From NCBI GenBank assembly GCA_001785615.1, contig MFUG01000013.1, forward strand, positions 11,006 to 75,005: a stretch of DNA of 64,000 bases, in the 5' to 3' direction. Both the position numbers and the translations under genes were made by a program. Position 1 is the stretch's first letter; every line of letters starts with the position of its first letter. Positions 4,327-61,605 of this stretch are shown one piece after another. The stretch comes from Candidatus Nomurabacteria bacterium RIFCSPHIGHO2_02_FULL_42_19. Its GTDB lineage: Bacteria > Patescibacteriota > Minisyncoccia > Phycocordibacterales > UBA9973. The notes beneath the pieces were generated by a model, which was not told the DNA's origin, searched no databases, and saw only the letters and a program-made list of their open reading frames with translations.

Positions 4327-4363
4327 ATTGCCTATTTTTACGCTATAGCGTAATTATAAGCAA
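4327..4363. repeat. Family-1 palindromic repeat, copy a (attgcctatttttacgctatagcgtaattataagcaa). Contains a perfect 16-bp palindrome, ttacgctatagcgtaa
   Basis: 34/37 identical to the copy at 4972-5008. Abuts the stop of ORF 4368..4970. Confidence 0.85.
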
Positions 4364-4367
4364 TAAT

Positions 4368-4970
4368 CTAACAAGGTAGGTTAAAAACTTCTCGAATGCG
4401 CCTATCATTTTCAATACTGTCAGCAATAACATAGAGGAGATCCTTGCCAATTTTAAAGTCTGCCTTGAGAAGCATTACCAGATCTTCGCAGTCGTAGGGG
4501 AAAATCCACACACTATCTTGTAAATAATGAAACCCGATTTGCTTAAGTGTGCTACGTATTTTTTCACGCGTATTTTTTCTTTTCTCTTTTACGTCAAATA
4601 TAAGCATTCTCCACTTCCCATCCCAGCGCCTTGGCCTCTCGAATTGATAATCCTTTAATTCAAATTGGCGAAGCTTCGCCTCTCCTTTTGGGGTCAAACG
4701 AGCGAAGGTTCCATTTTCCGTTTGCTCAAAAATTATCAATCCTTCATTTTTTAGCCTATTCCAGGATCGATTAACAGAATATTTACCGAATTTATTCTTC
4801 ATAAATTGCGGCTCGATTTGAGCTAGAACTTTCGTCATCTTTGGGGCTACTAAAGCAACACTCAACCCACCCAAGGCAAATACTGTGCTTAAAATTGCCT
4901 TTTGAATATTTGCCTTTTTTGAGCGTTTTCTTGAAGCTTTTTCTAACTGCCCCATGTAATCATAATACAC
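4368..4970 (-). CDS. PaaX-like small protein: N-terminal winged-HTH-like region plus C-terminal Cas2/VapD-like motif. Paralog 1 of 4
   Basis: C-terminal motif WRMLIFDVKEKRKNTREKIRSTLKQIGFHYLQDSVWIFPY follows the Cas2 pattern hhYD-x-R-R-x-L-x-G-x-Q-SVF. Paralogous to 17789..18352, 9235..9708 and 27139..27636. Alternative start GTG at 4970 or ATG at 4955. Confidence 0.5.
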   Translation of the reverse strand: MYYDYMGQLEKASRKRSKKANIQKAILSTVFALGGLSVALVAPKMTKVLAQIEPQFMKNKFGKYSVNRSWNRLKNEGLIIFEQTENGTFARLTPKGEAKLRQFELKDYQFERPRRWDGKWRMLIFDVKEKRKNTREKIRSTLKQIGFHYLQDSVWIFPYDCEDLVMLLKADFKIGKDLLYVIADSIENDRRIREVFNLPC

Positions 4971-4971
4971 T

Positions 4972-5008
4972 ATTGCCTATTTTTACGCTATAGCATAATT
5001 ATAGACAA
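4972..5008. repeat. Family-1 palindromic repeat, copy b
   Basis: Direct repeat of 4327-4363 (34/37 identical). Abuts the start codon of ORF 4368..4970. Confidence 0.85.
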
Positions 5009-5037
5009 CAAGTTTTATAACTTGCCTTTATATAATT

Positions 5038-5295: not shown

Positions 5296-6532
5296 TATAT
5301 TTTACTAGGTCAGAAACCTTTATTCGCTCTTGTAGGGCAGTATCGCGGTCGCGGATGGTGACAGTATCGTCTTTCAGCGTGTCAAAATCAATGACGATGC
5401 AGTAAGGGGTGCCGATTTCGTCCTGCCGACGATAACGCTTGCCGATATTGCCGTTATCGTCCCAGGCCACGCGACCGAATTCGGCCTTGAGGGGCGCATA
5501 GACCTTGGTATTGGCATATTCTACTAACTCGGGTTTATTCTTTAGAAGTGGCGAGACGGCGCAAATAACTGGCGCCATGTTGGGTTTAAACTTGAGATAC
5601 ACTCTGGGGCCGTCCTTTTCGCCTGCCCCGTTGGAAACTTGCTTTCCTTCGGGGTCTTCTTTATAAGCAGAAAGAAGAAGCGCGAGAACTGCGCGATCCA
5701 CCCCGAAAGTTGGCTCAATTACATGTGGTACTATTTTTTCATTTTTCTCTTCATCAATGTAATCAAGCTTATGATTACTTAAATCAAAATTCGTTCGGTA
5801 AGCCAGGCCGAAAAGTTCTTTACGTCCGAAAGGATAATCGAATTCAAAGTCAGTCGTTCTTTTGGAATAATGTGCTCTCTCCCCATTCGGAACCTCAAGT
5901 TCGTGCACTTTTGTCATATCAATGCCTATTTCTTTCATCCATTCAAGCATTTCATCCTTCCAGTATTCAAAATATTTTTCCCATTCGGATGCTCTTACAA
6001 AATATTCTATTTCCATCTGTTCAAACTCACGCTGACGAAAAAGAAAATCGCGAGGAGCGATTTCATTTCGGAAGGCCTTACCTATTTGGGCAATACCGAA
6101 AGGTAGCTTGGGATGATGGGCGTCAATTAGGTTCTTGAAATTTACAAAAATCCCCTGTGCGGTTTCCGGGCGTAAATAGGAGGTAATAGCTTCTTCGCCT
6201 GCCCCCACTTGGGTTTGAAACATTTCGTTAAATTTTTTACCCTCGGGGGTTGTGCTTAAAAACCCGGCTACGTGACCCGAAGCAACCCAAACTTTTGGAT
6301 TAAAAATGATGGAAGAATTCAGGCCATACATATCACGCCTGGAATCAACAAACTTTTTCCACCAAGAATTTTTTATATTGTTTTGCAACGCAAGACCGTA
6401 ATGTCCATAATCGTAAAAACCGGCCAGTCCTCCATAAATTTCCGAACTCTGGAAAACAAAACCGCGCCTTTTGCAAAGCGAAACAATTTTCTCCATTAGA
6501 TTGTCATCAGTTTTTGACATATTTTTATTCAA
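5279..6532 (-). CDS. glyQS: Glycyl-tRNA synthetase, dimeric class II type
   Basis: The N-terminus FQSSEIYGGLAGFYDYGHYG and the class II core motifs match GlyRS (alpha2 type). Confidence 0.85.
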   Translation of the reverse strand: MNKNMSKTDDNLMEKIVSLCKRRGFVFQSSEIYGGLAGFYDYGHYGLALQNNIKNSWWKKFVDSRRDMYGLNSSIIFNPKVWVASGHVAGFLSTTPEGKKFNEMFQTQVGAGEEAITSYLRPETAQGIFVNFKNLIDAHHPKLPFGIAQIGKAFRNEIAPRDFLFRQREFEQMEIEYFVRASEWEKYFEYWKDEMLEWMKEIGIDMTKVHELEVPNGERAHYSKRTTDFEFDYPFGRKELFGLAYRTNFDLSNHKLDYIDEEKNEKIVPHVIEPTFGVDRAVLALLLSAYKEDPEGKQVSNGAGEKDGPRVYLKFKPNMAPVICAVSPLLKNKPELVEYANTKVYAPLKAEFGRVAWDDNGNIGKRYRRQDEIGTPYCIVIDFDTLKDDTVTIRDRDTALQERIKVSDLVKYIEEKI

Positions 6533-8456
6533 CTACCCGGTCTCCGTTCGACGGGAAAGCGGAATCATTTACCAGCCGAGTATTAAGCGATGCTTTATTA
6601 ACTCTGATATCCAGATTAGCAAAATCGTCGTGCCCAGTCAAAGTTGCGTCGTTTATAATAACAGGAATGGTATTAACTTGAGACAACGAAGGGATAAAGG
6701 TGACAACAAAAGAGACCTCCTTGCCGGTAGTTGTGATCCCTGTTCCCCTCGGAATATTGCCTATATTCCAGATTATTTCTTTGGTTGAAGAATTATAAAT
6801 TAAATCCTCCGACGAAGGAGAAAATTTTCCTGCAAAATTTATCCACGGGGGAAGGGTAGAGCGTACGGACGCTTTAGAAATATTGTTGGCGGTATTAGAA
6901 AGAGACCACGCCACAGTATAAGTCGTTTCTTCTTCGGCCTTGGGGGGAATAGCTCCGGTATTCTTAAAAGGTCCGGAAAAATAAAGCGCTTTCGCGGCCA
7001 GTCCCGTATCAGAAATAATTTTAATTACCGAGGATTCTTTGTTGCCCAGGTCTTTGGATTCATACCCGGCGAGCGTTTGCTGCCCTGAAATATCTACGTC
7101 AATATTTATAGAAGGGTTAGCCAGCATGCCACTTGAGGCAGAAAATAGGGAGAGGGAGGAAATAGAAAAACTCACTGATCCAGAATCCCCCGGGTCTATT
7201 TCCTTAAATCTACTAATGGAATTTTTGTCCCAAATAATTACATCTTCGGATGAATTATAAAAGCCCTGCTTGGCAAAGATGGTTTTGCGATTGACCGCAT
7301 TCCCAGAAATTTTCGCGCGAATTTCCAGATCACTTATCTTGGTATCCAAGTTGTTGGTAAAACGAACTTCGGCATTAATGGGGGTACCAGAATAGCTAGA
7401 ATATTCTCTTTGACTTGCACCATCGATAAAAAACTTCGCCTCAATAAGAGGTTTTTTAATAACGACTGTCTGCTTTAAGGAGTTGAAAACGGTGCCAATA
7501 GTGGACTTGTCGGCAGCGGATTGTGACCCGCTCCAAACGTGAAAGGTTTTTTCTTCACCGTCAAAAACATCCAATATCTTGCCTTCGACGTAAATATTTT
7601 TGTCTGCCCCAGGAGCCAGATCCCCTAAGTCCCAAATATTATTGCCAAATGAGGGGGCCGGCGTTGCCTTGGTAAATTGAAAACCGACAGGATAATCAAG
7701 CCGCAGAAGCATCTTGGCCGCCGGCCGCGTAGCGTTCAGTGTGGCTTTTACTTTCAGGGTCATATTTTGATTTGGGCTTACGGAAGTCGGAAGATCCAGT
7801 GAAAGATTTATCGGGGTAGAGTTTATAGTTACTTCATATGATTTTTCCTTTACGAAAATAGCGTTGGATCCTTCTACCCGATACTCAATAGAAATTTTAA
7901 TGGGGCGAATACTGCCTTGTTCGCCAAAAAGAACTACTCTTACATTTTCATTTCTAATTACTCCCGGCGGAATAGTGCCTAGGGACTCGCGGATGCGTTC
8001 TGTTTCCGACCCCAGATTGACTTCTGAATTTTTGGGGTATTCCACAACCAGGTCGACAAGTTCCAGCGCCGAGGTATTTCTATTGGTTATACCAATCTGT
8101 AACGGTAGTTCTTCTCCGCCAGCAGTAAAAGCATTTCCCAGAATAGAGATATCTATGTTGTTGTTGGAAACGGTATTGCTTTCAACAAAAAACATGTAGG
8201 AGGCATATCCGACAGCCAAAATAAAAAAACCTACAGAAAAAATGAAAAACTTCTTAAAGAGAGACGTTTTTATAAAAAATTTTTCCCCTAAATCTTGCGC
8301 CACCCGTCCGCTAGTCCTCCAAACGTCCGGAACGTCCTTCGTTTCTAAGGGAGTAAAATTATCTCGATGCTCTACCTTTGTTTTATAACTTTTACTGAAA
8401 AGTTTGCTTTTTAGTTCTTCTATTCTGTTTAATTTATCTCCATCGCCTGATACCAT
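6525..8456 (-). CDS. Large membrane-anchored surface protein with a beta-rich repetitive ectodomain
   Basis: 643 aa. Cytoplasmic N-terminus of ~70 aa, then a single TM helix (FFIFSVGFFILAVGYASYMFF), then a long Ser/Thr/Asn-rich extracellular region. No recognised catalytic motif. Confidence 0.5.
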   Translation of the reverse strand: MVSGDGDKLNRIEELKSKLFSKSYKTKVEHRDNFTPLETKDVPDVWRTSGRVAQDLGEKFFIKTSLFKKFFIFSVGFFILAVGYASYMFFVESNTVSNNNIDISILGNAFTAGGEELPLQIGITNRNTSALELVDLVVEYPKNSEVNLGSETERIRESLGTIPPGVIRNENVRVVLFGEQGSIRPIKISIEYRVEGSNAIFVKEKSYEVTINSTPINLSLDLPTSVSPNQNMTLKVKATLNATRPAAKMLLRLDYPVGFQFTKATPAPSFGNNIWDLGDLAPGADKNIYVEGKILDVFDGEEKTFHVWSGSQSAADKSTIGTVFNSLKQTVVIKKPLIEAKFFIDGASQREYSSYSGTPINAEVRFTNNLDTKISDLEIRAKISGNAVNRKTIFAKQGFYNSSEDVIIWDKNSISRFKEIDPGDSGSVSFSISSLSLFSASSGMLANPSINIDVDISGQQTLAGYESKDLGNKESSVIKIISDTGLAAKALYFSGPFKNTGAIPPKAEEETTYTVAWSLSNTANNISKASVRSTLPPWINFAGKFSPSSEDLIYNSSTKEIIWNIGNIPRGTGITTTGKEVSFVVTFIPSLSQVNTIPVIINDATLTGHDDFANLDIRVNKASLNTRLVNDSAFPSNGDRVVE

Positions 8457-8512
8457 CCCTTTATTATACCATCCCGAACGAGATTGAGAAAATCTCTGAC
8501 GGGACAGGCATT

Positions 8513-9043
8513 TTATAAATGTGTTTCTTTCAGAACTCGATTTATTAAAGAGACCGCTTGGGCTTTGTTCCTGGCCTCGTATCCTCCCTCAACATAACCA
8601 AGTTTCTCTAAAATACCTAGGACAAGGGTTATTTCATAATCTTCAAATTCTTCCTGGGAGTGCGCATTCTCAACACTCGACAACCCCATAATTATTTCCT
8701 TAAACAATGGCTCATTCGCCTCCGTCCCGGGCAGTAAGCGTTTAAGTAGACGAGAGACATTGCTAAAAATTTTTAAACTTTCCCGTTTTTTGGTAATATT
8801 TTCCAGATAGCTTGTTTTTTCCGCAGTGGTAATACGCCAGAAGTCCTTACCTTGCACTAGGTCAATTTTTAAGTAAGCGAAATCCTGCAGCACAAAACGA
8901 AGTTTCGAGGACATTTTGCGCACGCCCGAGGCCGAAGCATAGATCATCCCGAGATCGCGAGTGAAAACGTAATAATACCTCCCCGCCTCTCCAAAATTTT
9001 TACTCCCCAATATTATCCCCTCGGTGTGGTAAATGTGATGCAT
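8513..9043 (-). CDS. recO: RecO-like recombination mediator, short form
   Basis: N-terminal OB-fold pattern TEGIILGSKNFGEAGRYYYVFTRDLGMIYASASGVRK and the later ITLVLGILEKLGY resemble RecO. The C-terminal Zn-finger region is absent. Confidence 0.5.
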   Translation of the reverse strand: MHHIYHTEGIILGSKNFGEAGRYYYVFTRDLGMIYASASGVRKMSSKLRFVLQDFAYLKIDLVQGKDFWRITTAEKTSYLENITKKRESLKIFSNVSRLLKRLLPGTEANEPLFKEIIMGLSSVENAHSQEEFEDYEITLVLGILEKLGYVEGGYEARNKAQAVSLINRVLKETHL

Positions 9044-9201
9044 GATTAGGGTAGCTTAACTAAATGCCAAGACCAATTTTCTAGAAAAAGGGTCTTTCGC
9101 TCTGCTCGCCCATGACTCTGTATATTTATTATAATAACTTAAATTTCTTTTGACTTCCTTCCTCATATATTTATTTTATCATATTCCTTCTCAGTTTATC
9201 T

Positions 9202-9241
9202 AACATAACACTACATCGCGACCGCGATAGATTGTTATGTT
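9202..9241. repeat. Family-3 palindromic repeat, copy a (aacataacactacatcgcgaccgcgatagattgttatgtt)
   Basis: Imperfect palindrome with outer arms aacataaca/tgttatgtt and core tcgcgaccgcga. Overlaps the stop of ORF 9235..9708. Shares the core and outer arms with 9718-9753. Confidence 0.75.
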
Positions 9242-9708
9242 GCTTTTCTAACCCTAAACACACGGATGTTTTCATAAATACCAAGAACTCTCAACCTCTC
9301 ACCAAATTCTTTTGGTAGAGGACCATGACCAAGCCATAAGCTTTTATGAATCATCTCAAAATCCCAATATTTTATCTGATTGCGGAGCCAGTCCCTAGTT
9401 TTTTTCTTGGTTTCAGGTATATCAAAAGATAGCAACACTCTTTCGGTCTTGCCTGGATAAATATTTTTCATCACCGAGTTATTCTTTACGGCAAGTTTAG
9501 CTAAATCCTCTCGACAAATATGAATGGTCTCGCCGTCTGTCTCAACAACCCCCTGCTTTCCTAACCGATAAATGCGTTGCCGAAAAGCTTCCGGAGTTAG
9601 GTTTTTTTGCCTTGCTCGCATTCTTTTCCACAACATCTTCCTGTATATTTTTGTTGAACGAGAAGACAGTAAAAATGCTATTAAGTGATCTACTATCGTC
9701 GGTTGCAT
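9235..9708 (-). CDS. PaaX-like/Cas2-like-motif small protein, paralog (subfamily B)
   Basis: C-terminal motif VLLSFDIPETKKKTRDWLRNQIKYWDFEMIHKSLWLG. Closest to 27139..27636 (shared FDIPE-K-R-WLR-I-KS-W-G-PLP-EF). Confidence 0.5.
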   Translation of the reverse strand: MQPTIVDHLIAFLLSSRSTKIYRKMLWKRMRARQKNLTPEAFRQRIYRLGKQGVVETDGETIHICREDLAKLAVKNNSVMKNIYPGKTERVLLSFDIPETKKKTRDWLRNQIKYWDFEMIHKSLWLGHGPLPKEFGERLRVLGIYENIRVFRVRKAT

Positions 9709-9717
9709 GGGTATATT

Positions 9718-9753
9718 ATAACATATTTTCGCGACCGCGAAGGAACGTTATGT
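9718..9753. repeat. Family-3 palindromic repeat, copy b (ataacatattttcgcgaccgcgaaggaacgttatgt)
   Basis: Shares aacata...tcgcgaccgcga...gttatgt with 9202-9241. Sits ~10 nt upstream of the start of ORF 9235..9708. Confidence 0.7.
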
Positions 9754-9758
9754 GTGAA

Positions 9759-10397
9759 TTACAAATTTTCTTCTTTGCCAATTTCCAAAACTTTAAATTC
9801 AATACTGTGTTTTATTAGAACAACGCTGGGAGTTCTATGCACAATACCTGGTATTTTTATATTCCAATCGTGAACTGGAAAACATACACGAGGGGCAAGT
9901 GAAATGGCATAATCTATGGAATCTTTAATTTTTAGCCACGGCGCCAAGACCGGAAGCGCAAGTATTTCTACTTTTTTCCCAGGGTTAGTAAATGAATCAC
10001 CAGGATAGAATAAATTTTTTCCAATAAAATAACCAGTATTTTGAACTTGACCAAACTCTTCATAAATTTCTGCGTGCTTGTCTCCATGGGCCTCTAGAGA
10101 AACCCCCATGAATTCTTCCGACTGCCCATCCTCAAGCTTTTTATATTTAATCCCAGCTTCGTCCAGTATCTTGCCTACCCCGCTGTTAGTAATGACTACG
10201 GCGTTTTGGTTACTTACTAAAATGTTTTTCAACGAATCAGTATGTAAGTGGTCTCGGTGTTCGTGAGAAATAATTATAATATCAATATTTTTCTCCATTT
10301 CCTGTTCTGAAATAGTATAAGATCCCGGATCAGTCATTACCCTTTTACCGTTTATCTCTATCACCAGGCAACAATGTCCTAGTTTTTTGATCTTCAT
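9759..10397 (-). CDS. MBL-fold metallo-hydrolase
   Basis: HxHxDH motif (SHEHRDHLH) in a 212-aa protein. Confidence 0.7.
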   Translation of the reverse strand: MKIKKLGHCCLVIEINGKRVMTDPGSYTISEQEMEKNIDIIIISHEHRDHLHTDSLKNILVSNQNAVVITNSGVGKILDEAGIKYKKLEDGQSEEFMGVSLEAHGDKHAEIYEEFGQVQNTGYFIGKNLFYPGDSFTNPGKKVEILALPVLAPWLKIKDSIDYAISLAPRVCFPVHDWNIKIPGIVHRTPSVVLIKHSIEFKVLEIGKEENL

Positions 10398-10409
10398 TTC
10401 TACATTTTA

Positions 10410-11009
10410 TCACAGAATTTCTTCCAGGGCCTTTAGTAAGTCCTCAGGGGTGCTGACAACCTTTGCAGGGTTAGCTTTTTGTAAATTTTCTTCTTCATGA
10501 AATCCCCAGGTAACGGCGATGGACTTGATCCCGCATTCCCGTGCTTCGGCAATATCGCCTGTTGTGTCTGTAATAAAAACAGCATTTTCTGATGTAATTT
10601 TATATTTTTCCAAAAGCATTTTGTTTTTCACAACTTTGCTGGTGTGAATATCTCCTCCTAATATATCGGAAAAACATTCGAGGACATTCGCTTGTTTTAA
10701 AATTTTTGTTATGAGTGCTGACGGCGTCGCCGAAACAATGGCAAGTTTGTAATCTTTGTTTAGTTCAAAAATGATGTCTTGTAATGGTTGTGGTACCTTA
10801 AACTCCCGTGACTGTTCTTCGTATCGTTCGAAAAATTTAGGATGTTGTTTTACTTTAGGATTATTTTTTAATGAATTATAAATATTCCCATTAAAAAGAG
10901 AGCGGAACATGTGAAGAGACAAGTTTTCATTGGTCTCTTTGCTAATTTCATAACTCACTATGAATGTATCCACCAAGACCCCATCAAAATCAAAAAGAAT
11001 CAATTTCAT
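10410..11009 (-). CDS. HAD-superfamily hydrolase/phosphatase
   Basis: N-terminal motif I LILFDFDGVLVDT (DxDG). Confidence 0.75.
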   Translation of the reverse strand: MKLILFDFDGVLVDTFIVSYEISKETNENLSLHMFRSLFNGNIYNSLKNNPKVKQHPKFFERYEEQSREFKVPQPLQDIIFELNKDYKLAIVSATPSALITKILKQANVLECFSDILGGDIHTSKVVKNKMLLEKYKITSENAVFITDTTGDIAEARECGIKSIAVTWGFHEEENLQKANPAKVVSTPEDLLKALEEIL

Positions 11010-14000
11010 ACTTTATCAATCTTTACTTTGAAAACCAACTCCCCTATTTTCACCTCTTCGCTATTAGTGTCTTTAAATTCTATTTTGGATGCCAGTGCAA
11101 TTTTTTTAATATCTTGCTCAAATTTTTGGATTAAACTCTTTCCCGCGTCGTCGGTTTCAACAGAAAGGGTGATCATGTCGCTCGGCGTCAGCCCCATTTT
11201 CTTCCGCATATCTTGAACAGCGCGCAAAAGCTCGCGATAACTTCCCTCTTGCTTTAATTCATGAGTTAACTCAGTAATTAATTTAAATTCCTTTCCGGCT
11301 GAAACTTCTTTGACGTTCAATTCATCTTTTATTAGCTCAATATACTCTGTGGTTAAACTTAAATTCGCCAACTCTAACTTAGCAAGCGGCTGACGAACTT
11401 GGATTTTCGCTTTCTGCCTGGCTTCTAACCCTAAAGAAACTATTTTTCTAACCTCTGCCATGTTTTCTAAAACTTTTGGCCGAAGGTCCCGAGCAGAAAC
11501 GAGGGGCCACTCGGCCAAATGCACACTGCCTACATCCTTATCTGTTTTTAGTCGGCGCCAAATATCTTCTGCCGCAAACGGAGTAAACGGGGCCATAATT
11601 TTCGCTAGAGTTTTCAAAATAAAATACAAAGTTGCTTTCGCGTCCCCGTCTCCCTCTTTAATCCGCTCGCGGGAGCGGCGAAGGTACCAAGTAGAAAGGT
11701 CCCCTATAAAATCCTTTATCGCGCGGGTCGGTTCAAGCAATTTATAATTGTCTAAGCTGTCAGTAGTGAGTTTTACCAGCTCATTTAGTCGAGCTATGAT
11801 CCATTGATCAAGGACATTGGTAGGCTTTAGGCGGTAGGCACTAGGCTCTAGCGAAACATTCCGATATAGTTCATAGAAAGCCAACACATTGTAGAGCAGG
11901 CCGAAAACCTGCTGATGAAGAAGAGCCACCGTTTTTTCATCAAAATTTTTGGACTCACCCGGCTGATTGACCGAATACATCCATAAGCGCAGTGTATCCA
12001 CACCGTATTTATCTATCATTTCCCACGGGTTCACAATATTTCCCAGGGATTTGGACATTTTTTTACCATTGGCATCGAGTAAATGCCCGAGGCAAATCAC
12101 ATTTTTATACGCTTTTCCCCGGCCCATCAGCACCCCCACTGCGTGCAGGGTATAAAACCATCCACGGGTCTGGTCAATAGCTTCCGAAATAAAATCCGCC
12201 GGGTAGCCCTTGCCGTCTACCCATTTTTTGTTTTCAAAGGGATAATGATCTTGAGCGAAAGGCATGCAGCCGGAATCCAGCCACACATCCATTACCTCTT
12301 TAGTTCTTACCGCACTGCCGCCACAGTCGCACACCAGATGAACCCCATCAATATACGGACGATGCAAGTCAAGTTCATAATTTTCATTGTGCGGCAATGG
12401 GATAAAATCTAATTTTTTCATTTCTCCCGTATGAAGCATTTCTTTTTCTTTAAAATTATTATCTGAAGATCCAGCGGATATTTTTTGTAAAACCCATAAA
12501 GGGTTGCCGTGAGAAACTATAAGAATATTTTTCCCTTGATATTTATTATCAATCTCATATATAAATTCCGCCATTCTTCTCCTAACAATATCCTCACTGC
12601 CTTCGTTTGATTCATGAAGCCGATCATCAACTAAAACAGCGTCGGGAGCAAGGCCTAGTTCATTTTTTACTACCTCTGCGGTCTCTTTGGTTCTTAAAAA
12701 TGGCGAGGAAAATATCGGGTTTATATCTTTTAATTTCTTAGATGTAGATATTGCTTCCTTTTTACCTTTTTCAGTCAAGTGATTGTCCGGATCACCCTTT
12801 GGGTCCAACAAGTGTTTGGCGTTATTAATTGCTTCTCCATGCCGCATAATAAAATATTTATTGCCGGATTTTTTAGTTTTACTTTGGAGATCTTCCAAGC
12901 CCCCGACGACATGCCTCTTCTCACATTTTTCGCAAGTCCAGACGGGCAGAGGCGTGCCCCAGTATCGCTCGCGGGATATTGCCCAGTCCTTGATCTCCCG
13001 TAGCCATTCGCCGAAACGTCCCTCGCGGGTATGCGCCGGCTCCCAGTTTATATTTTTATTTTCATTAATTAGTTGTTTCTTAATTTTTGGATCCGACATT
13101 TTGATATACCAAGAGTCCCGCGCATAGTATATGAGCGCTGTCTTACAGCGCCAGCAGTGCGGATATGAGTGTTGATAGTTTTCTTTATCGAAAAATAAAT
13201 TTTTATCTGTTAAATATTTAATAATGTCCACATCCAAAGTTGGCTTTCCACTGTCGTCTTTTTCTCTCACAAATCTTCCTCCCAAGAACCCTGTGCCTTC
13301 TATAAACTTACCTTCGGGGTCTACCAGATGGTGTTTCGGTAGTCCTACTTTCGTACCAAGCTCAAAATCGTCTTGCCCATACATCACCGCGGTGTGCACG
13401 ATACCCGTACCGTCTTCAGTATTTACAAAGTCCGCCGCGTAAACCCGAAAGGCCTTATCTGTTGACTCCCCTTTTTTCTCTAGTTGTTCTTTTAAGTATG
13501 GGAAAAGTGGTTCGTACTCTAGCCCAACCAAATCTTTGCCTTTCATTTCGGTTATAACTTCAGGATTTTCACCAAAAACAGGAAGTCGCGCCTTTGCTAG
13601 AATATATATTTCGTCCCCGCTTTTGACTTTCACATAATCAACCTTCTCCCCCACCGCAAGCGCGACATTCCCTGGCAAAGTCCAAGAGGTGGTCGTCCAG
13701 GCCAAGAAATACATATTGGCCGAGTCTGTATGCTTTTGTGAAGGAGTGGCTGAGCGTAGTGAGGAACCGAGCGACTGAGGAAAAGCATCAGGCGAGGCCA
13801 GCTTGAACTTTACATAAACCGAAAGATCTTTCACTTCTTCATACCCCTGTGCGAGCTCGTGTGAAGAAAGCGCGGTGCCGCATCTCGGGCACCAAGGTAC
13901 CACCTTGTAATCCTTGTAAAGAAGTTTCTGATCATCTACTTTTTTTACAACATTCCAAACCGATTCAATATAATCATTGTGATATGTGGCATACGCATTT

Positions 14001-14437
14001 TCTTGATCTACCCAATATCCGACACGTTCGGTAAATTTATTCCAGGCCTCAAGATATTCCCAGACGCTCTCCCTGCATTCCTGATTAAATTTAGCTACAC
14101 CGTATTCCTCAATCGCTTTTTTTGAATTAAGACCTAATTTCTTTTCTACCTGGATTTCTACTGGAAGTCCATGCGTGTCCCAACCGCCCTTGCGGCGTAC
14201 ATGGTACCCCTGCATCGTTTTGTAGCGAGGAATCGCATCTTTGAAGACACGCGCTTCCAAGTGGTGAAGCGCTGGTTTAGCATTGGCCGTCGGCGGACCT
14301 TCGTAAAAGATAAATTCTTTTTTACCTTCGGATTCTTTTAATGTCTTTTCAAAAATTTTATTCTCGCGCCAAAATTCCAAGATGCGCTCTTCCCGAAGAG
14401 CCGCATCTGATTTTTTATTCTTTTCGGTTTCAGCCAT
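11006..14437 (-). CDS. ileS: Isoleucyl-tRNA synthetase (type 2, archaeal/eukaryote-like) with an inserted histidine-phosphatase (PGAM-like) domain
   Basis: Editing-domain motif WTTTSWTLPGN, KMSKS (KKMSKSLGN), LHRPYID...DVWLDSG. A ~125-aa insert at aa ~527-650 reads KYFIMRHGEAINN...LTEKGKKEA...SSPFLRTKETA...ILIVSHGNPL, i.e. the RHGE...SHG pattern of the histidine phosphatase superfamily. HIGH motif is non-canonical (PALHHLEA). Confidence 0.85.
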   Translation of the reverse strand: MAETEKNKKSDAALREERILEFWRENKIFEKTLKESEGKKEFIFYEGPPTANAKPALHHLEARVFKDAIPRYKTMQGYHVRRKGGWDTHGLPVEIQVEKKLGLNSKKAIEEYGVAKFNQECRESVWEYLEAWNKFTERVGYWVDQENAYATYHNDYIESVWNVVKKVDDQKLLYKDYKVVPWCPRCGTALSSHELAQGYEEVKDLSVYVKFKLASPDAFPQSLGSSLRSATPSQKHTDSANMYFLAWTTTSWTLPGNVALAVGEKVDYVKVKSGDEIYILAKARLPVFGENPEVITEMKGKDLVGLEYEPLFPYLKEQLEKKGESTDKAFRVYAADFVNTEDGTGIVHTAVMYGQDDFELGTKVGLPKHHLVDPEGKFIEGTGFLGGRFVREKDDSGKPTLDVDIIKYLTDKNLFFDKENYQHSYPHCWRCKTALIYYARDSWYIKMSDPKIKKQLINENKNINWEPAHTREGRFGEWLREIKDWAISRERYWGTPLPVWTCEKCEKRHVVGGLEDLQSKTKKSGNKYFIMRHGEAINNAKHLLDPKGDPDNHLTEKGKKEAISTSKKLKDINPIFSSPFLRTKETAEVVKNELGLAPDAVLVDDRLHESNEGSEDIVRRRMAEFIYEIDNKYQGKNILIVSHGNPLWVLQKISAGSSDNNFKEKEMLHTGEMKKLDFIPLPHNENYELDLHRPYIDGVHLVCDCGGSAVRTKEVMDVWLDSGCMPFAQDHYPFENKKWVDGKGYPADFISEAIDQTRGWFYTLHAVGVLMGRGKAYKNVICLGHLLDANGKKMSKSLGNIVNPWEMIDKYGVDTLRLWMYSVNQPGESKNFDEKTVALLHQQVFGLLYNVLAFYELYRNVSLEPSAYRLKPTNVLDQWIIARLNELVKLTTDSLDNYKLLEPTRAIKDFIGDLSTWYLRRSRERIKEGDGDAKATLYFILKTLAKIMAPFTPFAAEDIWRRLKTDKDVGSVHLAEWPLVSARDLRPKVLENMAEVRKIVSLGLEARQKAKIQVRQPLAKLELANLSLTTEYIELIKDELNVKEVSAGKEFKLITELTHELKQEGSYRELLRAVQDMRKKMGLTPSDMITLSVETDDAGKSLIQKFEQDIKKIALASKIEFKDTNSEEVKIGELVFKVKIDKV

Positions 14438-17746: not shown

Positions 17747-17780
17747 TAGCATTTGCTTACGACCGTTAGTAAATGCTAAA
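17747..17780. repeat. Family-2 palindromic repeat, copy a (tagcatttgcttacgaccgttagtaaatgctaaa)
   Basis: Stem tagcattt/aaatgcta around a cgaccg core. 8 nt upstream of the start of ORF 17789..18352. Near-identical to 18355-18388 and related to 60557-60590. Confidence 0.85.
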
Positions 17781-17788
17781 ATGGTTCA

Positions 17789-18352
17789 ATGAGTCAAAAT
17801 ATTAAACGGCTAGGGACTACGCAACGAAAGATTCTTCTGCTTCTTCTGGCAGGGCTCGCGTTGGGTTTAACCAGATCGCCGAAAAAGCATTGGTGGATTT
17901 TAAAACAGATACCGAAAGAATGGAAAAAGATAAACCGACAAGCCCTGGAGAGGGCGATTAATTCTCTTTATGTTTCTCATCTAGTGCAGAAGGAACAACA
18001 CAGAGATGGCACAACCACTTTTGTCTTGAGTGAAAATGGTAAACGAAGGGCCTTGCGATTTAATATCGATAAGATGGAAATCAAAAGGCCGGGTAAGTGG
18101 GATAATAAATGGCGAGTGGTGATGTTTGATATTCCAGAAAAATTAAGGAGGTTGCGAGATTCTTTACGTTTACATTTCCGTGAAATAGGTTTAATTGAAC
18201 TCCAAAAATCAGTTTTTGTATATCCTTATCCATGCAGTAAGGAAATCGAGTTTATCTTGGAATTCTACAATACAAGAAGGCATGTGCGTTTTCTCTTGGT
18301 CGAAAAGATAGATAATCAGCTTCATTTAATGAAAAAATTTAATCTGTGTTAG
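17789..18352 (+). CDS. PaaX-like small protein (wHTH + Cas2/VapD-like motif), paralog (subfamily A)
   Basis: C-terminal motif WRVVMFDIPEKLRRLRDSLRLHFREIGLIELQKSVFVYPY. Aligns with 4368..4970 (RP-KWD-KWR...FD...Q-SV...PY-C). Confidence 0.5.
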   Translation: MSQNIKRLGTTQRKILLLLLAGLALGLTRSPKKHWWILKQIPKEWKKINRQALERAINSLYVSHLVQKEQHRDGTTTFVLSENGKRRALRFNIDKMEIKRPGKWDNKWRVVMFDIPEKLRRLRDSLRLHFREIGLIELQKSVFVYPYPCSKEIEFILEFYNTRRHVRFLLVEKIDNQLHLMKKFNLC

Positions 18353-18354
18353 TT

Positions 18355-18388
18355 TAGCATTTGCTTACGACCGTTTGTTAATGCTAAA
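18355..18388. repeat. Family-2 palindromic repeat, copy b (tagcatttgcttacgaccgtttgttaatgctaaa)
   Basis: 32/34 identical to 17747-17780. Begins 2 nt after the stop of ORF 17789..18352. Confidence 0.85.
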
Positions 18389-27061: not shown

Positions 27062-27138
27062 TAAGAAATTTAACAAAACGATTCCCATAAAATCAATATT
27101 TATAATTCTGCTATAGCAGATAAAAAAGTATCGATAAC

Positions 27139-27636
27139 TTAACTTAAAGCAAAAGAGTCGGTTTTGTACGGTTTTGCTAATTTTAATACCTTTATACATT
27201 TCTCAAGATGAATGTGCTCTAGATAAGAGATAAATTCTCGAGGCAAAGGAGAAGGACCAACCCATATACTTTTTTGAATCATTTTATACCCGAACTTTCT
27301 TAAATGCCACCTGAACCATTCCCGCTCAGCTCTCTTACTTTGCGGGATATCATACATCACAATAAGATTTTTTGGGGCGTCTTTGGGAAAACAAGATGGA
27401 AATTCCTTTATGAAGTTCAACTTTCTTTCTAAATACTTCCTACCAGCACTAGTTATAATTGCCTTGTCCTCTCCTGTCAGAATATACTTTTTCTGTTTCA
27501 ACTCGTATAAAGAGTTTCGGATAGATTGTCTTTTATAAGAGCCGAAGGCGGGCAAGCCAAAGAAGCTCACCGGCATACCCTTGTACCTAAAGTGCGGTTC
27601 TAGAAGAAGCCCTAGAATTTTTTCTCCTAAATTCAT
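27139..27636 (-). CDS. PaaX-like/Cas2-like-motif small protein, paralog (subfamily B)
   Basis: LIVMYDIPQSKRAEREWFRWHLRKFGYKMIQKSIWVGPSPLPREF. Closest to 9235..9708. Confidence 0.5.
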   Translation of the reverse strand: MNLGEKILGLLLEPHFRYKGMPVSFFGLPAFGSYKRQSIRNSLYELKQKKYILTGEDKAIITSAGRKYLERKLNFIKEFPSCFPKDAPKNLIVMYDIPQSKRAEREWFRWHLRKFGYKMIQKSIWVGPSPLPREFISYLEHIHLEKCIKVLKLAKPYKTDSFALS

Positions 27637-27731
27637 AGCTTAATTAAGCATAACACACTATATACTCAAAATCTAGCCATGGCATAAATTAAAGTATGGT
27701 AACACAAAATTATATAGTATTAATTTAGAAA

Positions 27732-55220: not shown

Positions 55221-55333
55221 GGATTAAAGGTGTCAGAGATTAAAGGTGGATTAAAGGTGTCAGGAACCTTTCTTTTTACACTATTACATGGGATTAAAGG
55301 TGTCAGGAACCTTTCTTTTTACACTATTACATG
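55221..55333. repeat. Upstream REP-like array: four copies of ttaaaggtg(tcag), including a 43-bp unit duplicated in tandem (55248-55290 and 55291-55333)
   Basis: Two adjacent copies of ggattaaaggtgtcaggaacctttctttttacactattacatg, preceded by ggattaaaggtgtcag and agattaaaggtgg. Confidence 0.85.
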
Positions 55334-55346
55334 TTAATATAGATCT

Positions 55347-56021
55347 ATGGGAAGACCCCAAAGAACTGACGTTGGTGGATATGTGTACCATGTATTAAAT
55401 CGAGCTAATGCTCGGATGACTATATTTAGTAATGATAAAGAATATCAAGGCTTTGAAGCAATACTTTTCGAAGCAATGGAAAAATTTAAGATGAGACTCA
55501 TCGCATACACTCTGATGCCAAATCATTTTCATTTAGTTCTGTATCCAAAATATGAGGGCGAGATAAAAAAGTTCATGCACTGGCTAACCCTTACCCACAC
55601 TCAGAGATGGCATGTATATACAAAAACAATAGGCCATGGTCATTTATACCAAGGAAGGTATAAATCATTTCTAGTAGAAGAGGATTCATATCTATGGGTA
55701 CTGCTTGCGTATGTTGAAAGAAATGCATTACGCGCAAAATTAGTAAAATCTCTCAAAGACTGGAAATGGTCAAGCTATTACAAAAGATTATATGGCACAG
55801 CTCTGCAGAAAAAATTACTGGCCACTGATAGCATTGCTTGGCCTGATAATTACGACAAATTACTTTCTCTAACTGAAGAAAAAGAAAAGTTAGAAACTAT
55901 TAGAAACTCTGTCAACAGAGGAAAACCTTATGGTGGTAATAGTTGGACCGGTAAAGTTTTGAAAAAGTTTGGTTTAGAAATAACAGAAAGAAAGAGAGGA
56001 AGACCAAAAAAAGGTTCCTGA
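55347..56021 (+). CDS. REP-associated tyrosine transposase (RAYT) / IS200-like Y1 HUH transposase
   Basis: HUH motif LMPNHFHLVL and the catalytic Tyr region GRYKSF...YLWVLLAYVERNALRAKLV parallel E. coli RayT/YafM (LPEHMH ... YxxxxDYIxxNPV). Confidence 0.75.
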   Translation: MGRPQRTDVGGYVYHVLNRANARMTIFSNDKEYQGFEAILFEAMEKFKMRLIAYTLMPNHFHLVLYPKYEGEIKKFMHWLTLTHTQRWHVYTKTIGHGHLYQGRYKSFLVEEDSYLWVLLAYVERNALRAKLVKSLKDWKWSSYYKRLYGTALQKKLLATDSIAWPDNYDKLLSLTEEKEKLETIRNSVNRGKPYGGNSWTGKVLKKFGLEITERKRGRPKKGS

Positions 56022-58121: not shown

Positions 58122-58939
58122 TAAAAATCGGGGACTATAATACAATAATGTCGGACAGAAATATATTCAACCAAATTGTATATACTCCCCTTTCTGAGGC
58201 GCTTCGACTTTTGGATGAACGCAAAAAGAATAAGGAATTGACAGCAAAAGTGGAAAAATTACTAAAAGGGGATATTCCGGAATTTTTAAAAAAGAAGAAC
58301 TGTGCAATTCTTTTTAGACAAGTTGCTACCCCAAACTATGAAACTAGACGATTTATATCTTTAGCAAAAGAAAATGACTTGCATCCGGTAATTTTTGAGT
58401 ATCATGATGATAAATTCACTTCTAATAATGAATTCAAGCACTCACTGGGGCAGTTACATATACAAAAAAAGAATAGAAAAAATAGTAATTTTAGTGTTGA
58501 AAAGATTACAATTATTGATTTTAACTTACATAACGGCAAAAAATTTAAAGATATTAAAACTTTATGGCTAGAACCGCTTGTTGATTTTCATAAAAAATTA
58601 TTTTCTGTTCACGACTATGGTGTTAATGATTTTTATTTATACAACGCCTCAGATTGGTTTAAAAAAAATGGAGGAAAGGCAATTGATTACTATGTCAATC
58701 TACTTTTATTATTTACTTGTTTTGGAATTTTATTTGAAAATTTTTTGACGTCAAAAAACTCCGAAGGCGAATTTACAAAGGGCATAGTATTGCCAGCGAT
58801 AGAAAAAGTGATTAACTTAGTCGGTGTTAAGCCGCTAATAATACCGATTGAACCCCTAGATTTAGAAACAGATATCTTTTGGGTTCATCATTTATTAAAA
58901 GTCAAGGAATTAATTCCAAATTATAAAAATGATAGATGA
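58118..58939 (+). CDS. Hypothetical protein co-transcribed with the histidine kinase
   Basis: 273-aa ORF overlapping its upstream and downstream neighbours by 4 and 11 nt. No motif. Confidence 0.4.
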   Translation: MIKIGDYNTIMSDRNIFNQIVYTPLSEALRLLDERKKNKELTAKVEKLLKGDIPEFLKKKNCAILFRQVATPNYETRRFISLAKENDLHPVIFEYHDDKFTSNNEFKHSLGQLHIQKKNRKNSNFSVEKITIIDFNLHNGKKFKDIKTLWLEPLVDFHKKLFSVHDYGVNDFYLYNASDWFKKNGGKAIDYYVNLLLLFTCFGILFENFLTSKNSEGEFTKGIVLPAIEKVINLVGVKPLIIPIEPLDLETDIFWVHHLLKVKELIPNYKNDR

Positions 58940-60554
58940 AATTTTAAACATTATAAATACTTGTTTTTTAACGACTAGCGCGTCAAGGCCAATAGCTTTT
59001 TACTCCCACTTAATTCCGGTAGTTTTATCAACTTTATTGGCTTTTTTAGTATTTATTAAATCTAAACGCACTCTTTTTTCTACTATTTTTTTGACTTTTA
59101 TTTTTGTCTTTTCTCTTTGGCTCATTGGCGATCTTGTAATATGGACATCGGATAATTATTATCTAATTTATGCCTTTTGGGCTCCTCTCGATTATATAGA
59201 AATAGTATTTTACGTCCTTGGTCTATATTTCGCTATAGTTTTCGTCAAAAAGTCCGACATATCAACATGGTGGAAAATTGTACTTTTTGCTTTAACCCTA
59301 CCAGCATTTTGGCTCACAATCAGTAGACAGTCAGTAATTGGTTTCAATCAGCCAGTCTGCGAAGCATTTAACAATGATTTTCTGGGTCAATATAAACTTG
59401 CCCTAGAGGGCATAATTTTAATATTTATCCTCATTTATGCAATTACTCCATTTTTCAAAAAGCTTCCCTGGAAGAAAAAGTGGCCGGACTTAGTGGTGCT
59501 TGGTTCTATGTTTTTATTCCTATCATCCTTCGGCATTACCGAATATCTGGCTTCCATCACTGGATATTATGAAATGAACTTATACAGCTTATTTCTCTTG
59601 CCGATATTCCTGGTAGCTATTATCTACTCCGTATTTGAACTTGATATTTTTAACGTTCACATTTTGGGCACGCATTACTTGGTCGTCGGGCTTATGGTTC
59701 TAATGGGCGGACAACTCTTCTTTATCACTGACACAACTAACCGATTTCTAACCATTTTAACAATCATCTTGATTACCATATTGAGCGTTATCCTTTTTAG
59801 GAACCTGAAACGCGAGTCCGACCAGAGAGTACAAATCGCGAAACTTAATATTGACCTCCAGAACCTTATCAAGCAGAGGGAGTCCCTCGTGCACCTCGTT
59901 ACCCATAAAGTGAAGGGTTCATTTACCCGTTCTAAATATATTTTTGCCGGGATGTTGGACGGAACTTTTGGCGAAGTGTCCCCAGCCCTTAAAAAAATAG
60001 CCAAACAGGGGCTGGAGTCCGACAATGCGGGCATCCAAACGGTTGATTTGGTCTTGAACGTTTCCAATATGCAGACCGGGACGGTTAAATACGAAATGAA
60101 ATCAATTGACTTAAAAGAACTAGCGCTAAAGGTAATCGCCGACAAGAAAGTCCACGCAGAGGAAAAAAATCTTAAAATAGAAAAAGATGTTAAAGACGAT
60201 AATTACTCCATCGCCGGGGACGTCTTCTGGCTTAAAGAAGTAATGAGCAATTTGATTGACAACTCTATCAAATACACCAAGGAAGGAAAAATAACGGTAG
60301 GTCTGGAAAAGAAGCCCGGCAAGATAATATTCTCGGTCAAAGACACCGGCCTAGGCATAACCGACGAAGATAAAAAGAATCTCTTTACCGAAGGCGGGCG
60401 AGGCAAGGACTCGGTTAAAATAAACGTGGACAGCACGGGCTACGGGCTCTTCTCGGTAAAACTAATCGTGGATGCTCACAAAGGCCGGGTCTGGGGAGAG
60501 TCCGAAGGACCCGGCAAGGGCTCGCAGTTCTTCGTGGAATTGCCGGCAGTATAA
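58929..60554 (+). CDS. Membrane sensor histidine kinase (orphan; no response regulator adjacent)
   Basis: ~8 N-terminal TM helices, an H-box-like VTHKVKGS, and HATPase_c G-boxes (DTGLGI, GTGYGL, GPGKGSQFFVELP). Confidence 0.7.
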   Translation: MIDEILNIINTCFLTTSASRPIAFYSHLIPVVLSTLLAFLVFIKSKRTLFSTIFLTFIFVFSLWLIGDLVIWTSDNYYLIYAFWAPLDYIEIVFYVLGLYFAIVFVKKSDISTWWKIVLFALTLPAFWLTISRQSVIGFNQPVCEAFNNDFLGQYKLALEGIILIFILIYAITPFFKKLPWKKKWPDLVVLGSMFLFLSSFGITEYLASITGYYEMNLYSLFLLPIFLVAIIYSVFELDIFNVHILGTHYLVVGLMVLMGGQLFFITDTTNRFLTILTIILITILSVILFRNLKRESDQRVQIAKLNIDLQNLIKQRESLVHLVTHKVKGSFTRSKYIFAGMLDGTFGEVSPALKKIAKQGLESDNAGIQTVDLVLNVSNMQTGTVKYEMKSIDLKELALKVIADKKVHAEEKNLKIEKDVKDDNYSIAGDVFWLKEVMSNLIDNSIKYTKEGKITVGLEKKPGKIIFSVKDTGLGITDEDKKNLFTEGGRGKDSVKINVDSTGYGLFSVKLIVDAHKGRVWGESEGPGKGSQFFVELPAV

Positions 60555-60556
60555 TT

Positions 60557-60590
60557 TAGCATTAGTGCGCGACCGCTTACTAATGCTAAA
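60557..60590. repeat. Family-2 palindromic repeat, orphan copy (tagcattagtgcgcgaccgcttactaatgctaaa)
   Basis: 10-bp perfect stem tagcattagt/actaatgcta around gcgcgaccgc. Same outer arms and cgaccg core as 17747-17780 and 18355-18388. Lies between the convergent kinase and methyltransferase genes. Confidence 0.8.
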
Positions 60591-60660: not shown

Positions 60661-61605
60661 TTAAACCACCTTAAAAACCAAGAAATATGAGGGGAGACGA
60701 GAAAATCCGAAGTGACTATAAACATATCGGCTCCCGACCACTAATCGTTCCAATTTGGCAGTACGAGAAACCTTGTGGGCAAGATTATCAAATGCTTGAG
60801 AGATTAAACGTGCATCTTCGAAAGCAAATCTTCCACGAGTGACCGTATTGCTCGCCTGCTGATCTGATTGTCCCACCAAAAATCGGGCTGGTAATCTTCC
60901 TTCCAGGATAATTTTTGCTCCCCTATTCGCGTGCTCTATCGCCGAAGCGAAGGTTGCCAACTGATTATTGTCATAATCAATAAAATAACTTAGGAAAATA
61001 ATATCGAACCTTAGAGTGGCGGGCAGGATACCGATAGTTCCCTCATAAACATTGATTCCTAGTCGCTTCTGGCGCTCAATACTTGCTCGAGATACATCAA
61101 CGCTGTGCAAATGCGTTCCTGTGACGCCTAAAGATAAAAGATGTTCTTCCAGTTCACCGCTTCCGCTACCTACATCGCATATTTCTTTTTTTTTCAATTC
61201 ATTGCGGGTATAACCACTGATGAGTGTTAAGCCATTCCATACAAGAAGCGCATTGAGAAAGCCGTAGTGGCATTTCCCTTTAAATTTTGAAAATTCCGAT
61301 AATATTCCGCCACCTCTTTGTTCATTTATAAGTTGCCCCAGATCAAGAATATCGACATATTCAATATCATACACCCGCGCAATATATTCATTGCCCTGCA
61401 AGTTTTGTTTTGCCAGATTGCGGATGTATTTATTTATGAGTTGCCGAAGTGGGTATTTTGCGTGGCAAGATTTCTTAAATTCATCTAAGGCGAAGCGCAT
61501 CGCACTTGAAAAATCAAGGTCTTGTTTTAGCAAGATATACTCCGCACCAAGCTTCCTGGCCAATTTCTTCATTGGCCAGAGGAAGAGATCGGATATGTTA
61601 ATCAT
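60661..61605 (-). CDS. Class I SAM-dependent methyltransferase
   Basis: Motif I ICDVGSGSGELE and post-I acidic residue (HSVDVS). Confidence 0.65.
   Translation of the reverse strand: MINISDLFLWPMKKLARKLGAEYILLKQDLDFSSAMRFALDEFKKSCHAKYPLRQLINKYIRNLAKQNLQGNEYIARVYDIEYVDILDLGQLINEQRGGGILSEFSKFKGKCHYGFLNALLVWNGLTLISGYTRNELKKKEICDVGSGSGELEEHLLSLGVTGTHLHSVDVSRASIERQKRLGINVYEGTIGILPATLRFDIIFLSYFIDYDNNQLATFASAIEHANRGAKIILEGRLPARFLVGQSDQQASNTVTRGRFAFEDARLISQAFDNLAHKVSRTAKLERLVVGSRYVYSHFGFSRLPSYFLVFKVV

Follow-up and report, generated by a model that had tools for sequence, protein, structure and literature searches.

A minimal PaaX-type gene of a Nomurabacteria genome, its flanking palindrome pair and a putative role in autoregulation

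Why would a short bacterial gene carry the same long palindrome on both of its sides? The question is raised by a 64,000-nucleotide (nt) stretch of DNA from Candidatus Nomurabacteria bacterium RIFCSPHIGHO2_02_FULL_42_19 (assembly GCA_001785615.1, contig MFUG01000013.1, forward-strand positions 11,006 to 75,005), here called the window, in which a minus-strand open reading frame (ORF) at 9235..9708 is enclosed by two copies of a near-palindrome. Judged by domain profiles and a structural model, the product of this ORF is a "mini-PaaX", a winged helix followed by the Cas2-like PaaX_M domain and lacking the PaaX effector domain. We propose, with a probability of about two in three, that a dimer of this protein represses its own leaderless promoter through the upstream palindrome, with the downstream copy acting as an auxiliary site.

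A palindrome pair around a short gene

The near-palindrome is 34-40 nt long, has the form ATAACA-N5-TCGCG-ac-CGCGA-N5-TGTTAT and occurs at 9202-9241 and at 9715-9753, with the dyads of the two copies 513 bp apart. The features on which the argument turns are as follows, in coordinates of the window.

9715..9753, minus strand: upstream operator copy (putative), with a 34-bp core at 9718-9751 and the dyad between 9734 and 9735
9202..9241, minus strand: downstream operator copy (putative), with a 34-bp core at 9205-9238 and the dyad between 9221 and 9222
9235..9708, minus strand: mini-PaaX gene, 157 amino acids (aa), with a winged helix at about residues 5-64 and a Cas2-like domain at 89-153
9715..9720, minus strand: TATAAT -10 hexamer of the mini-PaaX gene, within the operator arm GTTATAAT

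The region was read on both strands. The downstream copy, AACATAACACTACATCGCGACCGCGATAGATTGTTATGTT, is itself an inverted repeat (19+19 nt arms, 84% complementary), and the upstream copy reads ATTATAACATATTTTCGCGACCGCGAAGGAACGTTATGT. The pattern AACATAAC-N6-TCGCGACCGCGA-N6-GTTATGT fits 9202-9240 with 0 mismatches and 9715-9753 with 2 mismatches. When the arms and the 12-nt core are searched together at up to 3 mismatches, these are the only two places in the 64 kb, with 0 matches expected from 100 dinucleotide shuffles, and the exact 12-nt core is found only at 9216-9227 and 9729-9740. The repeat pair of this unit, which we call module 3, is far beyond chance. Both copies bracket the ORF closely. 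The downstream one overlaps its stop codon TAA (9237-9235), the upstream one ends 9 nt before the ATG at 9708, and the stop codon of an MBL-fold gene lies 5 nt before the start of the upstream copy. An initial annotation of this DNA had described a palindrome pair flanking a gene at this place, and both copies are indeed where it put them.

The encoded protein

The 157-aa protein matches PF20803 of Pfam (PaaX_M, "PaaX protein central Cas2-like domain") at 2.5e-10, with 40.7 bits against a cut-off of 24, and PF09827 (CRISPR_Cas2) below threshold at 0.0032, with 18.1 bits against 23.8, in keeping with the Cas2-like motif that had been read in it earlier. Pfam gave no match for an N-terminal domain and NCBIfam gave no family and no match to TIGR02277, a model on which the paralogues of the window score 14-46 bits against a cut-off of 264. 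A search of PDB sequences with the family profile found no match; the paralogue of module 1 (m1) alone reaches E. coli PaaX (8a39, E=3.7e-5). PADLOC returned marginal AbiEi and Cas2-type matches only. We collected 71 homologues, nearly all of 155-170 aa and all with PF20803, which come from Patescibacteria (Nomurabacteria/Paceibacterota) and a few of which carry the JGI label "transcriptional regulator PaaX". Since the first 24 residues are conserved in an alignment of 35 homologues, the ATG at 9708 is the true start and not the internal Met of some gene calls. The family is large, with 3,284 clusters at 50% identity for E<=1e-3 and 1,203 for E<=1e-10.

An AlphaFold model built from the homologue alignment predicts three helices and a beta-hairpin wing at residues 5-64, with a predicted local distance difference test (pLDDT) score of 55-71, then a linker helix and a beta-alpha-beta-beta-alpha-beta fold at 89-153 with a pLDDT of about 90. 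The best Foldseek matches are Rv0674 (3kfw), E. coli PaaX (8a39) and many Cas2 chains; the alignment to Rv0674 and PaaX spans 122-129 columns, the E-values are modest (5e-3 and higher) and the probabilities are 0.85-1.0 (0.85-0.99 for the Cas2 structures). The protein ends at residue 157, where the effector domain of PaaX would begin. The aspartate of the Cas2 "Y/F-D-I" motif is invariant as D96 in 35 sequences, whereas E. coli PaaX (LLSEG) and Rv0674 (IVTSIG) lack it in the alignment of paralogue m1 with PaaX. A helix with the residues R105, W107, R109 and Q111 is conserved as well.

The upstream copy and the promoter of the gene

On the gene strand the upstream copy reads ...CGCGAAAATATGTTATAATATACCCATG, and TATAAT overlaps the last bases of its arm, followed by 6 nt and then the ATG, with no Shine-Dalgarno (SD) motif. 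The -10 box so close to the ATG and the lack of an SD motif predict a leaderless mRNA, which the mini-PaaX transcript probably is. TATAAT or TATGAT stands at the same position in the orthologues, and a -10-like hexamer lies 5-9 nt before the ATG in 55 of 84 genes of the family, with an SD-like motif in one of the 84. Among 316 control genes, neighbours in loci L001-L080, 29% have a TATAAT-like hexamer at 5-9 nt and 4% an SD-like motif, so that leaderless expression seems common in these organisms; the figures suggest that leaderless or SD-independent expression is widespread in these Patescibacteria.

The dyad of the upstream copy lies a median of 35 nt before the ATG across the family and 26 nt here. 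At 26 nt before a leaderless ATG the site would cover the -35/-10 region, which is the geometry of repression by promoter occlusion. This geometry supports autoregulation well: very probably the protein binds the palindrome at the flanks of its gene and gates the promoter from which it is expressed. The initial annotation had gone further, with one regulator gating both itself and a DNA-repair neighbour. Its first half is supported by the -10 box inside the site, the PaaX-like geometry and the co-variation of protein and site in 80 loci; a dedicated control of the neighbour, recO, is not supported.

Palindrome pairs across the family

We surveyed 80 loci with relatives of the gene, taken from Patescibacteria genome assemblies, by comparing 140 nt upstream with 140 nt downstream of each ORF. 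A gene was called bracketed when the two sides shared an ungapped match with a score of at least 14, and 186 non-adjacent genes of the same loci served as controls. The same palindrome, typically of 30-42 nt, lies on both sides at 58 of the 80 loci and at 1 of the 186 control genes. The core differs between subfamilies (CGACCG, CGATCG, GCCATGGC, GCTATAGC, GCGATAGC, CAGCTG, CACCTGTG) and the arms vary too, all within one geometry. When the four half-sites of each locus are compared, identity peaks at -16..-12 (outer arm) and at -4/-3 (core), and the spacers are variable. The sites differ among the four paralogues of the window as well as between subfamilies, yet they match within a locus.

A metagenome scan with ATAAC-N6-TCGCGNNCGCGA-N6-GTTAT returned 32 contigs, 13 of them with an orthologue of the 9235..9708 gene beside the site. 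Both copies flank the gene in 11 of the 13 (513 bp apart in 8), and the remaining two contigs end within the gene, leaving one copy visible. The 513-bp spacing is kept in at least 10 orthologous loci, exactly so down to about 45% protein identity, and the consensus of the module-3 clade is cATAACA..cT.TCGCGgtCGCGAaaa.gTGTTAT. The synteny from IleRS to recO persists down to about 32-45% protein identity, with both copies diverging in parallel. Because the orthologues are syntenic the module is not recently mobile, and because both copies co-diverge with the protein we infer that the downstream copy is intrinsic to the module and under long-term selection.

Individual loci show further variation. 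In L018 the copies at 2890-2941 and 3449-3500 are identical over 52 nt, non-palindromic flank included, and in L005 those at 2957-2989 and 3470-3502 are identical at 32 of 33 nt, which hints at gene conversion or recent duplication between copies. Asymmetric dyad centres (GCGATAGC/GCTATCGC and GCACCTGC/GCAGGTGC) are common to both copies of a locus and are direct or inverted in different loci (L012, L029, L035, L039, L040, L064, L067, L068, L075, L079 and L080 versus L031, L032, L050 and L070); the two copies occur in all four relative orientations.

Sites of the module-3 type are also found without a PaaX_M gene (L086:611-644; L105:4432-4465 and 6214-6247; L111:1133-1166 and 2827-2860; L087, L089, L090 and L103). 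Some lie directly at the start codon of a ~580-aa zf_Tbcl gene, a gene that in L010 comes after a module. Another is kept between convergent vanY and scpB in at least 3 organisms; we considered it as the footprint of a deleted module and rejected this, since it is conserved across 55-75% protein identity. These PaaX_M-free sites are candidate regulon members or insulator sites. The solo sites of L081, L085, L092, L099, L100 and L107 include several perfect 34-nt palindromes, whose N6 spacers differ between contigs and are fully complementary within a site, unlike those of the module copies, and they may form a separate, structure-selected class.

Proposed mechanism

Based on these data we put forward a hypothetical mechanism in which mini-PaaX, as a dimer held together by its Cas2-like dimerisation domain, would bind the long palindrome by its 6-N22-6 arms, with the GC-rich core at the dyad. 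Bound to the operator copy on the -10/-35 region of the leaderless promoter, it would exclude RNA polymerase and shut off its own transcription, as PaaX does at Px. The second copy, after the stop codon, is a conserved and intrinsic part of the module and would most likely act as an auxiliary operator, by looping or as a roadblock; in this lineage it also stands a short way ahead of the next gene's promoter. Read from the sequence, the downstream copy may loop to the upstream copy as an auxiliary operator, may carry bound protein as a roadblock that insulates the unit, or may be a partner in recombination or gene conversion.

Several points weigh against this mechanism. The N-terminal half of the AlphaFold model reaches only moderate confidence (pLDDT 55-71), and the protein has no effector-binding domain, hence no evident site for a signal that would relieve repression. 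The need for a copy after the stop codon is left unexplained. The distance between upstream and downstream copies, taken as a test of looping, shows no helical phasing (Rayleigh p 0.26-0.49); such phasing matters little at 500 bp. The identity of the copies over 33-52 nt in some loci exceeds what binding needs, and nothing in the published PaaX operator corresponds to the conserved GC-rich core that the dyad has here. Finally, sites of the same type are conserved where no promoter exists, between vanY and scpB and at a solo palindrome of the window (60555-60590) that has no promoter to regulate, and such sites make a structural or roadblock function more likely, for some copies at least.

The downstream copy and the recO neighbourhood

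The alternative that survives best makes the downstream copy a dedicated operator for recO, through which the regulator would couple its own level to a DNA-repair gene. We consider it unlikely. The features concerned are these.

8513..9043, minus strand: recO-like gene (RecO_N 2.6e-12; synteny)
9164..9180, minus strand: extended -10 promoter TGaTAAAAT with its hexamer at 9178-9173, followed by 6 nt and an ATG at 9166-9164; kept in orthologues
9047..9163, minus strand: lineage-specific insertion of ~120 nt between this promoter and the recO start, seen by alignment and absent from orthologues

What speaks for a recO operator is the layout in the orthologues, in which the downstream copy is followed by 26-36 nt, a conserved TGnTAAAAT extended -10 box, 6-8 nt and the predicted leaderless ATG of the next gene, often recO. 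In the module-3 clade about 54-58 nt separate the downstream dyad from that ATG; the copy stands ahead of the core promoter and does not cover it, a position compatible with modulation from an upstream site. In the window itself the initial annotation had placed the downstream copy in the promoter region of recO, but the recO ATG (9043) is 160 nt from the edge of the copy and 178 nt from its dyad, which puts the copy outside the core promoter, and the downstream arm reads GTTATGTT, with no good -10 box. The ~120-nt insertion, absent from the orthologues L093, L097 and L088, separates the promoter from the recO ATG and creates a 36-codon ORF (9056..9166), which is all that the ATG at 9166 opens here; in the orthologues this ATG starts the next gene, be it recO, MBL or another. 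No other copy of the insert was found in the window or the fetched loci, and an Rfam search of 8400-10500 at E<=1, the insert included, gave no match.

The comparison across loci argues against recO more generally. The orthologous neighbourhood has the order IleRS-(HAD)-(MBL)-module-(MBL/other)-recO-643-aa gene, and recO is the gene directly behind the module at only about half of these loci, the others having MBL or another gene there. The core promoter is not overlapped, and a fixed, activator-like spacing from the downstream copy to the next promoter was tried and rejected, since the gap varies between 26 and 36 nt. A matched downstream copy is present in 33 of 42 loci with a co-directional next gene versus 27 of 36 with a convergent one, so that 75-79% of homologous loci carry it whatever the orientation of the next gene; this makes it a part of the module and not an operator reserved for recO, contrary to the earlier suggestion. 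Gating of recO is at best a lineage-specific side effect, and the copy may affect a neighbouring gene, for example as a roadblock or by modulation from an upstream site.

Duplex DNA or RNA hairpin

A further alternative, which we hold to be improbable, is that the palindromes are terminators or mRNA-end hairpins flanking a short independent gene, with the protein irrelevant to them. Both copies can be folded as RNA hairpins (-16.7 kcal/mol for the downstream and -10.8 kcal/mol for the upstream copy, z -4.2 and -2.9), each comes right after a stop codon, solo copies stand between convergent genes, and the A-tract/T-tract extensions of some family members resemble bidirectional terminators. However, the sense strand after the downstream copy reads AGATAAACTGAG, with no T-run, and a terminator scan finds only a 5-bp inner stem with the weak tails AATATGTTAT and AGATTGTTAT. 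The spacers here are not complementary, and the stem mismatches of 120 sites (82 G·T versus 70 A·C) show no bias toward the wobble pair. The co-variation patterns are about equal in number (45 "within-copy", 55 "direct" and 40 "inverted", beside 196 single changes), which fits independent two-state drift and gives no support for a selected stem. With neither a U-tract nor a G·U bias the repeats are not plain terminators, and the conservation of arms and core together with the lack of a G·T over A·C bias points to duplex DNA read by a symmetric dimer and not to an RNA hairpin. Moreover, the upstream copy holds the -10 box and so would be outside the mRNA, long palindromes are rare in the window and concentrated at PaaX_M genes, and a generic terminator fails to explain why copies match within a locus and differ between paralogues.

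Possible mobility and catalysis

It is very unlikely, in our judgement, that gene and palindromes form a mobile or rearranging cassette, with lox-, attC- or REP-like sites or a long target duplication on which the Cas2-like domain or an unlinked recombinase would act. The layout is like that of RAYT-REP (repetitive extragenic palindromic) and repeat-insert-repeat units, some dyad centres are asymmetric, in direct or inverted relative orientation, solo sites exist, and near-identical pairs extend over 33-52 nt including non-palindromic flank (L018, L005); the metal-binding Asp of Cas2 (D96), lost in E. coli PaaX and Rv0674, is invariant. Yet the orthologues stay in the IleRS...recO neighbourhood to about 32-45% identity while their copies diverge in parallel, and solo copies are rare, with one in 64 kb; this conserved synteny and the scarcity of solo copies are the strongest evidence against mobility. 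In addition, no recombinase or transposase was seen among the examined neighbours (MBL, recO and housekeeping genes), and the conservation of the vanY/scpB solos marks them as functional.

We give an equally low probability to a related idea, that these are self-bracketing elements in which the Cas2-like domain would be catalytic on the GC-rich, restriction-site-like core, its activity leading to gene conversion, inversion or duplication of the cassette. The invariant aspartate of Cas2, the centres in both orientations and the near-identical copies would then be accounted for, and, if true, a palindrome-insert-palindrome unit with a Cas2-like gene would be a living relative of a stage before the divergence of CRISPR adaptation and PaaX. 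Least probable of all is a Cas2/VapD-like RNase that binds or cleaves transcript hairpins and so processes or stabilises its own and neighbouring mRNAs: RNase activity is reported for Cas2-family proteins, the Cas2-like motif and Asp are conserved, and the palindromes can form hairpins and sit at gene boundaries, but wobble pairs are not favoured, the stems co-vary little (2:2 patterns 55/45/40), the upstream copy lies partly on the promoter of a transcript predicted to be leaderless, and both the winged helix and the PaaX-type operator geometry speak for duplex DNA.

Paralogous modules and other features of the window

The window holds four PaaX_M genes, three of them within matched palindrome pairs. 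Besides module 3 these are the following, together with one solo site.

4327..5011, minus strand: module 1, gene 4368..4955 (PaaX_M 1e-20), with two copies of ATTGCCTATTTTTACGCTATAGCGTAATTATAAGCAAT at 4327-4366 and 4972-5011
17747..18388, plus strand: module 2, gene 17789..18352 (PaaX_M 4e-20), with two copies of TAGCATTTGCTTACGACCGTTAGTAAATGCTAAA at 17747-17780 and 18355-18388
27092..27697, minus strand: module 4, gene 27139..27636 (PaaX_M 2e-12), with two unlike palindromes of the same class
60555..60590, no strand assigned: solo palindrome TTTAGCATTAGTGCGCGACCGCTTACTAATGCTAAA, with module-2-type arms and core (TTTAGCATT...CGACCG...AATGCTAAA)

The palindrome core of module 1 is GCTATAGC and that of module 2 is CGACCG, with a -10 box TAAAAT inside its upstream copy. 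Since the genes 4368..4955 (minus) and 17789..18352 (plus) each lie between matched palindromes, the architecture shared by modules 1, 2 and 3 that the initial annotation had noted is borne out. Module 4 has the core GCCATGGC upstream (27662-27697) and CTGCTATAGCAG downstream (27092-27135), unlike flanks that may reflect cross-wiring between paralogues, and its product is the only one of the window to pass the Cas2 cut-offs (25.0 in Pfam, 29.2 in TIGR01573). The solo site lies right after the stop of ORF 58929..60554 (plus), facing the convergent ORF 60661..61605 (minus).

Two observations concern other parts of the window. The IleRS gene (11006-14437, minus strand, 1143 aa) has an internal stretch, …YFIMRHGEA…SSPFLRTKETA…VSHGNP…, which in translation resembles an inserted histidine-phosphatase domain. 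At 55248-55333, just upstream of ORF 55347..56021, a 43-nt unit, GGATTAAAGGTGTCAGGAACCTTTCTTTTTACACTATTACATG, stands twice in perfect tandem.

Significance

In Patescibacteria (Candidate Phyla Radiation, CPR) genomes are tiny, regulators that can be recognised are few and experimental genetics hardly exists. Against this background a minimal PaaX-type family with more than 1,200 clusters at 50% identity (E<=1e-10), and with four genes in a 64-kb window, is large, and the two copies of the site around a gene allow each gene to be paired in silico with its putative cognate site. The resulting dictionary of predicted protein-operator pairs could serve to trace regulons of uncultured bacteria, to learn how a winged-helix/Cas2-like protein reads long palindromes, and to supply orthogonal repressor/operator parts. 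Mini-PaaX, with the domain order of PaaX and the aspartate of Cas2, stands between the two and bears on the direction in which the fold passed, from CRISPR adaptation to transcription control or the other way. The second putative operator, beyond the stop codon, is a conserved and unexplained part of the design.

Comparison with known systems

Cas2 and VapD-like proteins share with mini-PaaX the ferredoxin-like beta-alpha-beta-beta-alpha-beta fold, the Asp at the end of beta1 and similarity over beta1-alpha1. A Cas2 dimer carries about 23 bp of duplex DNA on its surface, a span that would fit the 22-bp segment between the arms. Mini-PaaX differs in its fusion to a winged helix and in having only two repeats, ~510 bp apart, which enclose a gene; no CRISPR array was found in the 64-kb window and no cas1 nearby, the immediate neighbours being MBL-fold and recO genes, although cas1 was not searched window-wide with hidden Markov models (HMMs). 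In RAYT/REP systems a single-copy gene lies between two ~35-nt palindromes specific to the gene's subfamily, and mini-PaaX genes are likewise bracketed by two copies of their own subfamily palindrome. RAYTs, however, are HUH/Y1 transposases acting on single-stranded hairpins, with REPs in tens to hundreds, whereas mini-PaaX solos are rare and Pfam finds no transposase domain in the 157-aa protein.

The C proteins of restriction-modification systems are small autoregulators that bind protein-specific palindromic C-boxes over their own, often leaderless, promoters, and many orthogonal specificities have evolved together with their sites (PMC2632904). The likeness of the module to them is looser than that to PaaX at Px. 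They differ from mini-PaaX in their Xre-type helix-turn-helix, in much shorter operators, in having no downstream copy and in controlling an adjacent endonuclease gene.

The closest comparison is with PaaX itself (8a39, 3l09), the phenylacetyl-CoA-responsive paa repressor of E. coli and Pseudomonas, which has the same winged helix followed by the Cas2-like PF20803. PaaX is a dimer, its operator in E. coli has 6-bp inverted arms more than 20 bp apart (TGATTC-N27-GAATCA, compared with ATAACA-N22-TGTTAT here), and it represses its own promoter Px by steric hindrance (paa-pathway review, PMC9493321). This likeness of the operator to the 6-N22-6 arrangement is the main reason for reading the repeats as duplex-DNA operators of the encoded protein. 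The differences are clear: PaaX has ~310 aa with an effector domain, whereas mini-PaaX has 157 aa, falls well short of the TIGR02277 cut-off and retains the Cas2 "FDI" aspartate, which is lost in PaaX; no paa genes were seen nearby, a second copy of the putative operator follows the gene, and each genome has several orthogonal paralogues. We found no description of mini-PaaX proteins or of the bracketed layout in the literature searched, whose coverage is incomplete. The mini-PaaX module is most plausibly a version of a regulator type already known to repress itself.

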